Assembly (NCBI RefSeq): GCF_054482525.1 | Contig: NZ_CM137006.1 | Reading direction: 5' to 3' (one strand) | Length of the DNA stretch: 64,000 nucleotides | Shown: piece after piece, positions 44,313 to 64,000 of the stretch | Position numbering within the stretch: position 1 is the first letter of the stretch | Layout: every line of letters begins with the position of its first letter | Program-made: the position numbers and the translations under genes | The notes under the pieces: generated by a model | What the model was told of the DNA's origin: nothing | Seen by the model: only the letters and a program-made list of their open reading frames with translations | Database searches by the model: none

Positions 44313-44720
44313 TCACCCCGCCCGATGATGACAGCAGCCGGAGAGATTTTCGATAATCGGGCAGTCGGCGCTGTCATCACCAGGGCAGGCATTCGCCAGC
44401 GCCAGTAGCTGGTCGCGCATGGATTGCAGCTCCTCAATGTGCCGTTCGATCTCCGCTACCTTCTCCAGCGTGCGCCGTTTTACATCGGCGCTGTGACGCT
44501 GTGGGTCGTTAAACAGATTCACCAGTTCGCCGCTCTCTTCCAGGTTAAAGCCCACCTGGCGCGCCTGGCGCAGTAAGGTCAGTTCGTTGAGATGCTGCTG
44601 CGTGTAGGTTCGATAACCATTTTCGCTGCGCATCGGCGGCGTCACCAGCCCCTTCTCTTCATAGAAGCGAATGGCTTTGCTGGTCAGGCCGGTAATTTTT
44701 GCTACATCGCTAATGTTCAT
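44313..44720 (-). CDS. cueR: MerR-family copper-responsive regulator
   Basis: 135-aa [32 protein letters not shown]... with C-terminal metal-binding Cys pair (CPGDDSADC). Confidence 0.9.
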
Positions 44721-45892
44721 CGTTCGCGCAACGCCTCCTGTGCTTTATTAAAGGGTTTCAACAGATAATCCAGCACGCTTTTTTTGCCGGTGCGGATATC
44801 GACCGTCGCCACCATACCGGGGAATATCGGAAACTGCTGTTTATGTTTATTTTCCAGATGGTTGCTGAAAGTGCGAATGTACACCCGATAGTAATAAACA
44901 TCGCGCCGCACTTCATCCTGCACGGTGTCTGGTGATATCACCGCCACTTCTCCCGGCAGGCCGCCGTAGATGGAGTAATCGTAGGCGGTTATTTTCACCA
45001 GCGATTTTTGCCCCGGGTGGATAAACGCCACATCGCGCGGGGAGATTTTTGCCTCAATCAGCAGTTGCTCATCCAGCGGCACGATGGTCATCAGTTTACC
45101 ACCGGGGGCAATGACGCCGCCAACCGTGGTGACGTCAATGTCCTGAACAATGCCTCGCACCGGCGCGGTAAAGTTGAGCCTGGTGAGGGAGTCTTCCCGT
45201 CCACGGATCACCGAACGCTGGGTTTCTACTTCCGCATTGGCTTTCGCTAACTCTTCCCGCGCCTGTACGTAGTATTGCGTGCGCACGTCGCTGAGTTTGT
45301 TTTCCAGTTCATTGGCCTGGCGTTGCAGGCGCAGCACTTCAACGCTGCTCGCCGCCCCCTGTTTTACCAGCGGCTGGGTCATCGCCAGTTCGCGGTTGAC
45401 CAGGCTAATCCCCTGCGTCAGCCCGGTGGTGGCTTTGTTCAGCCCATCGCGGCGAGTGTTGTACAACGCCGTTTCCGACTCGATAAGTTCGGGGAATTTA
45501 TTCAGTTCGTCAGGGAAGACCAGCGGTTTATTACTCACTTCCGCCCGCAGCCGCGCCGAGGTTGCCAGCGCCGCGTACAGCCGCGACATTGCTTCCTGGA
45601 CGTCGGATTCCGTTTTGGTGCGGTTAAGCTGCGCCAGCGGCTGGCCCTGTTCAACAATATCGCCAACCTTGACGTCGAGATGATACAGAATTCCGCCTTC
45701 CAGCGACTGCACCACCTGTTCGCGCCCGGAAGGTTCTACCGTGCCGCTGCCGGTGGTGACTTCATCAAGCTGGAAGTACCACGCCCAGCCGAGAAAACAG
45801 AGCAGCATCACAGAGGTAACGCGTACCGCCAGCGCCGAACGCGGCAGGCGGGGTTCAGTCAGGCCACGGTTGTATTGCAGTTGTCCGTTCAT
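44717..45892 (-). CDS. type I secretion membrane-fusion protein (HlyD family)
   Basis: 391-aa ORF with N-terminal TM, long coiled-coil and C-terminal beta domain typical of HlyD/LapC; 4-bp overlaps with ABC gene upstream and cueR downstream. Confidence 0.85.
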
Positions 45893-63000: not shown

Positions 63001-64000
63001 TACTGGCTGGCGGTCAGATTGCTGAGATCTGCCGTCGGCACGCTGACACTCCAGCTCCCGTCCGCCAGGACGGTGCCGGTGTAAGTCACGCCATTAAGCG
63101 TGACAGTTACCGTCTGCCCCGCTTCGGCGGTGCTACTGCCGCTGATGGTTAGCGGATTGCCCGCCTCGGCGGCGTTCAGAATATCGTCGGTGGCGATGGT
63201 GTTAATGGCAAGCGTCGGTGCCGTGGCATCGACGCTGTAGGCGTGGGTTGCAGAAGCCGTGTTGCCGTTAACGTTACTGACGCTGGCCTGCACCGAGGCG
63301 TCGCCGTCGCGTAACGCGCTGAGATCGGCGGCAGGCACGGTGGTTGTCCAGCTACCATCGCCCGCTACGGTAGCGGTGTAGGTTTTCCCGCCAATGGTAA
63401 CGGTGACCGTTTGCCCCGCTTCCACGCCGGAGGTGCTGCCTGAAAGGGTTAAATCTGCACTTTTTTCAGCGGCATTAATCACATCGTCGCCGGAAACGGT
63501 GTTAATGGAGATCGCCACAGCTGCCAGATCGACGGTGACTGGATGGGTGATGGTGACCGGGTTTCCTGCGCTAGTAGCACCTGAAACCGTGATATTCACC
63601 GTACCCGCAGGCCAGTTGCCTACATTTGCCGCCGGAACGCCAAGGCTCCATGTGCCATCGGCTAATACTGTCGCGCCATAGGTGACGTTATTGATCACCA
63701 CCGTCAGCGCCGCGCCCGCCGCCAGCCCGCTGCTGCTACCAGTTATCACCAGCGCCTGACCGTGTTCGATGCTGTTAACCACATCATCGCCCGCCACGGT
63801 ATCGACGCGCAGACCCGGCAGGTTGGCGTCTATCACAATATCGCGCGAACCGCTGCCAGTATTGCCAACACCGTTGGTTACCGAGGCATTAACCGTCAGC
63901 TCGCCATTACCGATGGCCTGAATATCCGCCGCCGGAACGTCCACGCTCCAGCTTAAATTCCCCTGCACGGTAGCGGTGTAGGTTTTCCCGCCAAGTGTTA
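48055..64000 (-). CDS. giant Ig-repeat adhesin, probable type I secretion substrate (LapA/SiiE/BapA-like); 5' end beyond window; apparent frameshift near 62,940-62,975
   Basis: 4960-codon ORF 48055-62937 continuing in another frame 62913-63968 and beyond; about 45 tandem ~100-aa Ig-like units, a FG-GAP/VCBS-like Ca-binding segment, C-terminal GGxGxD-type motifs (GRGGNDTLNIGNGGHDTL) and acidic C-terminus; stop 3 bp before the ABC transporter gene. Confidence 0.85.
50875..52470 (-). repeat. five tandem ~315-bp repeats of a second domain type
   Basis: Units begin VDTTAP/IDTIAP ... and share DTG.S..DF.TSDTTL...G.LGAAL...E.AQIS.DGG.TW..L.....W.Y.DGRTL.DG.Y.YQVRV.D.AGN.G. Confidence 0.75.
52470..64000 (-). 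repeat. tandem ~300-bp coding repeats (Ig-like domains) organised in ~1.8-kb super-repeats
   Basis: Recurring protein units ...VDLTAP..INT.AGDD.INA.E......SG.S.G...G..VTV.....Y...; antisense ORF artefacts of near-identical sequence recur at 54422, 56213, 57998, 61592, 63394 (spacing ~1.79-1.80 kb). Confidence 0.85.

Follow-up and report, generated by a model that had tools for sequence, protein, structure and literature searches.

A type I secretion operon next to cueR

To which system does the giant repeat gene beside the copper regulator gene cueR belong, and could the copy in this genome still yield a working product? We analyzed a window of 64,000 nucleotides (the whole stretch of DNA considered here; NCBI RefSeq assembly GCF_054482525.1, contig NZ_CM137006.1) in which the DNA from cueR to the last base carries two transport genes and a repeat gene that runs past the window end. 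We conclude, with a probability of about 0.9, that this region represents the distal three quarters of the siiEA/O-island 28 (OI-28) operon of E. coli, a type I secretion system (T1SS) for a giant calcium-dependent surface adhesin, SiiEA. What the genes encode, how the domains are ordered, where the operon lies and how it is distributed were observed directly and are presented below. The locus itself is nothing new: it is already known, named and functionally studied, with a curated NCBI family and a published loss-of-function study in enterohaemorrhagic E. coli (EHEC).

A reading made from the sequence alone, without database searches (hereafter the sequence-only reading), had described three co-oriented and tightly packed minus-strand genes encoding a giant repeat protein, an HlyB/LapB-like transporter and an HlyD-like membrane-fusion protein, and had interpreted them as a T1SS with its adhesin. 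The layout agrees in its coordinates (Table 1). The stop codon of the giant open reading frame (ORF) occupies positions 48055-48057 and is separated by 3 nucleotides from the gene of the ATP-binding cassette (ABC) transporter, which in turn overlaps hlyD by 4 bp. The ATG of cueR likewise overlaps the hlyD stop codon by 4 bp (ATGA). Profile searches placed every gene as proposed, with the transporter and the adaptor scoring above the cutoffs of TIGR03375 and TIGR01843, and these results support the adhesin interpretation. Given the frequency of stop codons, the 4,960-codon open frame is not a chance product. The G+C content is about 0.58-0.63 over the three T1SS genes (45000-64000) versus 0.43-0.50 in the neighbouring ybbJ-cueR DNA.

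The ABC protein also matched the Pfam families ABC_membrane and ABC_tran. Its N-terminus, which is included in the full-length TIGR03375 match, presented a weak Pfam match to Peptidase_C39 (residues 12-98; E = 0.018), and no obvious catalytic cysteine was seen by eye in this domain. The weak match would fit the C39-like domains of adhesin and RTX exporters. In E. coli SCU-102, the NCBI Prokaryotic Genome Annotation Pipeline (PGAP) gives the adaptor the same name (HlyD-family type I secretion periplasmic adaptor), and the adhesin gene is annotated "siiEA: BapA-related adhesin SiiEA" in all sampled genomes. The equivalents of the two transport genes in O157:H7 are hlyD28 (Z0635) for the adaptor and hlyB28 (Z0634) for the transporter, the latter called lapB in the Sakai annotation.

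Domain architecture of the adhesin

The C-terminal modules of SiiEA all lie within the 4,960-codon ORF (Table 1). The sequence-only reading had quoted four Dx[DN]xDG motifs, GGxGxD repeats before the C-terminus and dozens of Ig-like units, and each of these was found again. The four motifs lie between 49165 and 49686 (DYDWDGAVD, 49165-49191; DWNHDGLMD, 49315-49341; DFDGDGDMD, 49474-49500; DLNNDGRID, 49660-49686), the two canonical nonapeptides (GRGGNDTL and GNGGHDTL) at 48424-48477. The expected adhesin and secretion domains were all matched by profiles (Big_13, FG-GAP_3, HemolysinCabind and TIGR03661).

Tandem Ig-like extender units make up more than 85% of the adhesin. In the two parts of the gene found in the window, we counted 38 + 4 stretches of NF033510 (Ca_tandemer) and 35 + 3 of NF012196 (Ig_like_ice); the resulting 42 Ca_tandemer stretches compare with 60 in the full-length SCU-102 orthologue. 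The units are spaced by 99-100 amino acids and form a six-unit super-repeat of about 598 amino acids, which shows in the DNA when the sequence is matched to itself with a shift of 1,794 nucleotides. Because the extender repeat of about 300 nucleotides is too diverged at the DNA level, Tandem Repeats Finder reported only a 318-nucleotide array, and the unit counts were therefore taken from protein profiles. That array (51559-52318) belongs to the Big_13-type units, whose motifs are spaced by 106-107 amino acids and which show a weak sequence match in the Protein Data Bank (PDB) to the Ig domains of Salmonella SiiE (BIg50-52, 2yn3; E = 5e-7).

We then modeled the C-terminal 831 residues with AlphaFold, using an alignment with 28 relatives. 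Among solved structures in the PDB, the model best matched the fold of the CRTAC1 FG-GAP propeller (E = 3.6e-13), with integrin alpha chains next. These matches support a calcium-binding beta-propeller as the distal ligand-binding module, and we presume that the FG-GAP propeller is the ligand-binding region at the tip of the stalk.

Table 1. Coordinates of cueR, of the operon genes and of the adhesin domains in the window.
Feature	Positions	Strand	Description and support
cueR	44313-44720	minus	Cu(I)-responsive MerR-family regulator; NF007590 equivalog, 308.6 bits (cutoff 244)
hlyD (391 amino acids)	44717-45892	minus	HlyD-family type I secretion periplasmic adaptor (membrane-fusion protein); TIGR01843, 327.6 bits (cutoff 208.65)
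Last ~32 codons of hlyD	44721-44816	minus	Kept in K-12-type genomes as the upstream spacer of cueR; right end of the apparent scar
ABC transporter gene (720 amino acids)	45889-48051	minus	LssB/LapB-type type I secretion permease/ATPase; TIGR03375, 836.4 bits (cutoff 693.1)
siiEA downstream of the frameshift	48055-62937	minus	4,960-codon ORF with all C-terminal modules; ORF and NCBIfam matches
Type I secretion C-terminal target domain (secretion signal region)	48067-48375	minus	TIGR03661, 32 bits (cutoff 17.6), ORF residues 4855-4957
Short RTX nonapeptide block	48424-48531	minus	Pfam HemolysinCabind, E = 2e-4; weak PDB sequence match to the CyaA RTX block
FG-GAP/VCBS-type Ca-binding beta-propeller	49156-50031	minus	Three Pfam FG-GAP_3 matches, E = 2e-9 to 3e-7; holds the four Dx[DN]xDG motifs
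About six Ig-like Big_13-type units	50545-52410	minus	Pfam Big_13; ~106 amino acids each, distinct from the main extender repeat
Extender array	52411-64000	minus	~100-amino-acid Ca2+-stabilised Ig-like units, ~39 in the window; continues past the window end
siiEA upstream of the frameshift	62913-64000	minus	Frame enters from beyond 64000, stop at 62913-62915; four Ca_tandemer units

The operon beyond the window

The part of the operon that lies beyond position 64000 can be read in SCU-102. Between 22764 and 39902 this genome agrees with the window at every base (100% identity), and over 41335-64000 it differs from the window by two substitutions and one deletion, all within siiEA (99.98% nucleotide identity across 16.7 kb of this gene). 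The substitutions, at 54464 and 48562, are the sole ones in about 40 kb apart from the frameshift; one of them alters a conserved repeat residue (LTLSGSTSG to LTLFGSTSG) and the other is synonymous. The gene order in SCU-102 is ybaT, a TolC-family outer-membrane protein, siiEA (21,684 nucleotides; 7,227 codons), the ABC transporter, HlyD and cueR. The suggestion that an outer-membrane channel gene might lie upstream of 64000 is thus borne out in this genome, where the TolC-family gene directly precedes the adhesin gene (TIGR01844, 415.6 bits, above cutoff).

The N-terminus of the SCU-102 adhesin carries the 229-residue signature NF047714 (498.9 bits; cutoff 425) and a BapA prefix-like domain (NF033677, 65.3 bits, cutoff 35; PF22783 BapA_N, E = 1.2e-18). 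By analogy with other adhesins, this end of the protein would be the retention module and would act as a plug. A search of the N-terminal 200 residues of this orthologue against PDB sequences yielded chance-level matches only. By inspection, residues 96-99 read TAAG and are followed by a Gly/Ala-rich hydrophobic stretch, which resembles the di-alanine site of LapG. The sequence-only reading had seen no retention module of the LapG/LapD type in the window; a BapA-type N-terminal domain is now added from SCU-102, and LapG/LapD genes were not found in the locus. Nor were LapG/LapD-like genes detected downstream of hlyD in the related loci of Enterobacter sp. Ag1 and Pluralibacter, where the neighbours encode a methyltransferase, an amine oxidase, an MlrA-like regulator and an EAL protein scoring well below the LapD cutoff. 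Directly downstream of hlyD in Enterobacter sp. Ag1 and Pluralibacter gergoviae we also observed a conserved ORF of about 283-285 amino acids on the opposite strand (minus strand of the extracted loci, L008:7211-8062 and L014:7210-8067), which matched nothing in Pfam or NCBIfam; in Escherichia, this place is taken by cueR.

Distribution in E. coli and the O157:H7 locus

The locus is variable in E. coli. We detected it in 959 of 5,426 complete genomes (~18%), presence being defined as at least 80% coverage of a query that ran from cueR through both transport genes into the 3' end of the adhesin gene. The sequence-only reading had taken the DNA for accessory, given that K-12 has ybaT next to cueR and no such locus, and this comparison agrees with that view. 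The name siiEA traces to the UMN026 annotation "adhesin for cattle intestine colonization" (PMC3256949).

Functional data come from the O157:H7 and O145:H28 orthologues, in which OI-28 is needed for epithelial adherence and mouse colonisation according to a 2025 study (PMC12758282). Deletion of OI-28, or of any of its five annotated genes, lowers adherence to Caco-2 cells and colonisation of mice; RstA binds and activates the regulatory region of OI-28, and Ca2+ raises its expression (PMC12758282).

In O157:H7 Sakai the order of genes is ybaT, the outer-membrane protein, ECs_0541/ECs_0542, lapB, the membrane-fusion protein and cueR (ECs_0540-0544 for the operon). The two adhesin ORFs lie in the same frame and are parted by a single TAG inside a repeat unit (L004 15738-15740; ...AAGNSDN*THTVTVNL...). 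The shared frame and the lone in-frame stop indicate that the "two RTX proteins" of O157:H7, RtxA28 and RtxB28, are a single siiEA gene interrupted by an amber nonsense mutation. The OI-28 study (PMC12758282) makes no mention of a stop codon or a pseudogene, and the O157 literature thus appears to treat one interrupted gene as two adhesins. This single-gene reading, together with the K-12 scar and the exact fusion to cueR described below, is a modest by-product of our analysis; we did not find any of the three described in the literature searched.

A frameshift in the window copy and alternative readings

The siiEA copy of the window is not open throughout. A GGG present in the three closest genomes is GG in the window at about position 62968 (62966-62970, minus strand), which corresponds to codon 2257 of the 7,227-codon gene. 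The frameshift was called from 1601 versus 1602 aligned bases and from base-by-base comparison with these three genomes; no complete RefSeq E. coli genome matches window positions 62400-64000 without the 1-bp gap. The protein of more than 5,300 codons announced by the sequence-only reading therefore does not exist as one frame: the longest open frame has 4,960 codons, and 5,315 codons is the sum of both frames. The deletion places the retention end and the secretion end of the adhesin in different frames, and a real deletion would prevent the window copy from yielding a full-length anchored adhesin.

Could the operon of the window be a decaying relic, with intact transport genes and a siiEA pseudogene that yields no working adhesin? 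We give this reading a little less than an even chance. The frameshift stands out against three near-identical genomes, and it would leave an N-terminal fragment of 2,270 residues with no secretion signal and a C-terminal part with neither start nor retention domain. Disrupted alleles are also common elsewhere: siiEA is flagged by PGAP as an "internal stop" pseudogene in O145 RM12275-C1 and in cattle strain 141, both siiEA and hlyD are flagged as frameshifted in PCN033, the gene is split in O157 Sakai, E. coli SCPM-O-B-8794 keeps mere fragments of the TolC-family, siiEA and ABC genes, and the operon is wholly deleted in more than 80% of genomes. However, one base dropped from a run of Gs within a highly repetitive gene is also what errors of assembly or sequencing typically look like, and all three point differences from SCU-102 over about 40 kb sit in this repeat gene. 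The ABC and HlyD genes are intact, and adherence still depends on OI-28 in O157 strains whose gene is split (PMC12758282). It is also conceivable, if improbable, that the split gene acts as two products, translation restarting after the break (e.g., at GTG 62937) to give a C-terminal protein of about 4,960 residues that would be released unanchored. The downstream ORF does retain every export module, including the secretion signal, and the O157 split is analogous (ECs_0542), deletion of either half alone lowering adherence there. Yet the ribosome-binding site and promoter for an internal start are only putative, released adhesins of this class normally lose their adhesive function, polar effects could account for the single-mutant phenotypes of O157, and the window frameshift may not be real. 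More generally, intact siiEA alleles (SCU-102 and 19KM1776 carry such alleles) differ in length (6,924, 6,926 and 7,227 codons) and the gene is often broken at differing sites, so that calls of presence or absence overstate the number of strains making the full adhesin.

A different cargo was also considered. Early O157 annotations speak of an "RTX family exoprotein" and the OI-28 paper of an "RTX toxin" (PMC12758282), and the HemolysinCabind match, the T1SS C-terminal domain and the weak sequence match to the CyaA RTX block could be taken to mean that the system exports a pore-forming RTX toxin. This is very unlikely: only two canonical nonapeptides are present, the protein consists for the most part of Ig-like extenders, the orthologue carries an N-terminal BapA-type retention domain, the tightly packed operon holds no hlyC-type acyltransferase gene and leaves no room for an extra gene, and the phenotype of the O157 mutant is a loss of adherence (PMC12758282). 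A toxin of the HlyA type was rejected, since we found no hydrophobic pore-forming domain, no activating acyltransferase and no long nonapeptide array.

We therefore retain the adhesin operon as our preferred reading, and several points weigh against it. The RTX nonapeptides number just two or three, and the AlphaFold model of the C-terminus is of moderate confidence (pLDDT 67.6). Neither the retention domain nor the TolC-family gene is in the window; both are taken from a near-identical genome, in whose locus no LapG/LapD regulator genes were detected. The adhesin genes of O157 were complemented only with truncated constructs of two Ig domains, with partial rescue of the phenotype (PMC12758282). 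Finally, the reading frame is broken in the window copy, which makes function in this strain uncertain.

History of the ybaT-cueR site

In K-12 the operon is absent and ybaT and cueR are 124 bp apart. The sequence-only reading had given this arrangement correctly, with one qualification: a piece of hlyD is still there. The K-12 spacer begins with the 28 bp that in island-bearing strains come after ybaT, and it continues directly into the final ~95 bp of hlyD (K-12 MG1655, L003 4398-4493), which are 94% identical to the window with a 1-bp deletion. The retained piece encodes ...VDIRTGKK..., the C-terminus of HlyD that is conserved in Enterobacter, Cedecea, Rahnella, Acinetobacter and Salmonella, which indicates a gene remnant and not a chance similarity. 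The joint lies 28 bp after ybaT, inside a hairpin (GCGCAGTAC...GTACTGCGC) of island-bearing strains, and the two breakpoints share a GTA microhomology. Genomes without the island match positions 114-617 of our query, i.e., window 44313-44816, and all 19 of the 19 sampled end at the same base, 44816. This common endpoint speaks for a single deletion, inherited or spread afterwards. These comparisons suggest that the K-12-type junction is a deletion scar and not an ancestral empty site. The upstream region of cueR in K-12 would thus be a fossil of an adaptor gene, which matters for the mapping of the cueR promoter and for the history of this hotspot.

The fusion of the cueR ATG to the hlyD stop codon raises the possibility that cueR is co-transcribed with the operon in island-bearing strains, or translationally coupled to it. 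A scan for sigma-70 consensus promoters found none on the cueR strand, either within the 3' end of hlyD or within the spacer of K-12, a result that is uninformative on cueR transcription, and our literature search for a link between cueR, ybaT and type I secretion returned no papers. Taken jointly, a single ancestral deletion at the K-12-type junction and a cueR transcribed, perhaps with translational coupling, as the last gene of the adhesin operon have in our view an even chance of being right. If this is true, expression of a copper regulator is linked to that of an adhesin.

The operon, with the same overlap of hlyD and cueR, also occurs at 99% amino-acid identity in E. whittamii and in Escherichia sp. 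E1V33. Identity falls to about 70% in the next relatives, from Enterobacter, Cedecea, Pluralibacter, Lelliottia, Rahnella and Rosenbergiella, which have the adhesin-ABC-HlyD order in common with it but are not located beside cueR. BapA-type systems are more distant, with 56-60% identity for HlyD. The operon thus appears to have been acquired by an ancestor of Escherichia from an enterobacterial source of higher G+C content, to have been fused exactly onto the start of cueR, and to have been deleted later in most E. coli.

A different arrangement was observed in SCPM-O-B-8794, where the fragments of the TolC-family, siiEA and ABC genes (L007 3679-7068) lie between ybaT and a nearly complete hlyD followed by cueR. 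This genome seems to represent a third state of the locus, produced by an independent internal deletion.

Variable DNA on the other side of cueR

The flank of cueR that faces away from the operon is variable as well. A copy of IS1397, an insertion sequence of the IS3 family, occupies 39903-41334 (minus-strand ORFs at 39935-40657 and 40762-41292) between ybbJ and a gene for a hypothetical protein of 120 amino acids. SCU-102 lacks this copy and is otherwise identical; four of its bases align at both sides of the insertion. An insertion sequence at this site was found in only 4 of the 5,426 complete genomes (99.1% identity). A second variable segment (41457-44312) carries the 120-amino-acid hypothetical gene (41457-41819, minus), a YadA-like trimeric autotransporter (42168-43601, plus), a lipoprotein of 140 amino acids (43687-44109, plus) and a small ORF called by PGAP in SCU-102. 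K-12 lacks all genes of this segment, and its cueR and ybbJ stop codons abut. At least one genome without the T1SS operon, that of strain MS20657, still matches about 110 bp downstream of cueR; this suggests that the operon and the 41457-44312 segment may vary independently.

Proposed mechanism

The domain order of SiiEA, read in the light of LapA and other RTX adhesins, suggests how the system may work. The ABC transporter, of the LssB/LapB type with a C39-like N-terminus, would recognise the uncleaved C-terminal target domain of SiiEA, and the adhesin would be threaded C-terminus first through a conduit formed by the transporter, the adaptor and the TolC-family channel. Once outside the cell, Ca2+ would fold the RTX block and the FG-GAP propeller and then the roughly 60 Ig-like extenders, which would prevent back-sliding and build a long stalk. 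The N-terminal BapA-prefix domain would fold before export and be unable to pass, leaving the adhesin plugged in the outer-membrane pore with its propeller at the tip, where SiiEA could mediate attachment to host surfaces.

Comparison with known systems

RTX adhesins have four standard parts: a retention module, extenders, a ligand-binding region, and a beta-roll with the secretion signal (bioRxiv 10.1101/2025.09.30.679566). SiiEA presents the features of a LapA-like member of this class, i.e., a T1SS target domain following the nonapeptides, an array of Ca2+-binding Ig-like units, an N-terminal module, and genes for the ABC transporter, the membrane-fusion protein and a TolC-family protein. 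It has the four-part architecture in common with LapA of P. fluorescens (LapBCE), and each adhesin is served by an ABC transporter, an adaptor and a TolC-family channel of its own. In the SCU-102 orthologue, residues 96-99 form the TAAG motif, which resembles a di-alanine cleavage site. However, LapA is governed by the LapG/LapD cyclic di-GMP switch, for which no gene was detected in or beside the siiEA locus, whereas the regulator reported for siiEA is RstA with Ca2+ (PMC12758282); the ligand-binding module of SiiEA is an FG-GAP propeller, unlike that of LapA.

With Salmonella BapA (bapABCD), SiiEA shares the BapA prefix-like N-terminus (PF22783, NF033677), tandem Ig-like repeats and export by a T1SS. 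The order of genes differs, being adhesin, TolC, ABC and HlyD in BapA-type systems versus TolC, adhesin, ABC and HlyD at the siiEA locus. SiiEA is also about twice as long as BapA, and the C-terminal regions are merely 41% identical over a short stretch. The BapA-type system of S. enterica subsp. arizonae (L081) is 56% identical to the window for HlyD and 48% for the ABC transporter, compared with about 70% for the Enterobacter/Cedecea group that shares the siiEA order. These differences place the locus outside bapABCD.

SiiE of Salmonella, encoded in the siiABCDEF operon of Salmonella pathogenicity island 4 (SPI-4), is the source of the name siiEA and, like SiiEA, is a giant Ca2+-binding T1SS adhesin of an enteric pathogen with Ig repeats. 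The two proteins differ in their N-terminus, which is of the BapA type in SiiEA, and in gene order, and in sequence they resemble each other only in generic Ig-like units. MotAB-like accessory genes of the SiiA/SiiB kind were not found, the ybaT-cueR interval holding just the outer-membrane protein, the adhesin, the ABC transporter and the membrane-fusion protein, and the locus is thus not a member of the SPI-4/SiiE system.

The closest match is OI-28 of O157:H7 (tolC28-rtxA28/rtxB28-hlyB28-hlyD28; Z0608-Z0635), which shares with the window locus the ybaT-cueR site, the gene order and the gene families. The window displays the part of this order from adhesin to cueR, and SCU-102 and Sakai display it in full. 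The alleles differ in length, with about 7,227 codons in SCU-102 (the window type, intact) versus about 6,822 codon-equivalents in Sakai, and in their disruption, a frameshift at codon 2257 in the window versus an in-frame TAG after codon 1461 in Sakai. The EHEC-lineage O145 strain RM12275-C1 and cattle strain 141 are about 96% identical in nucleotides to the window over the transport genes and cueR.

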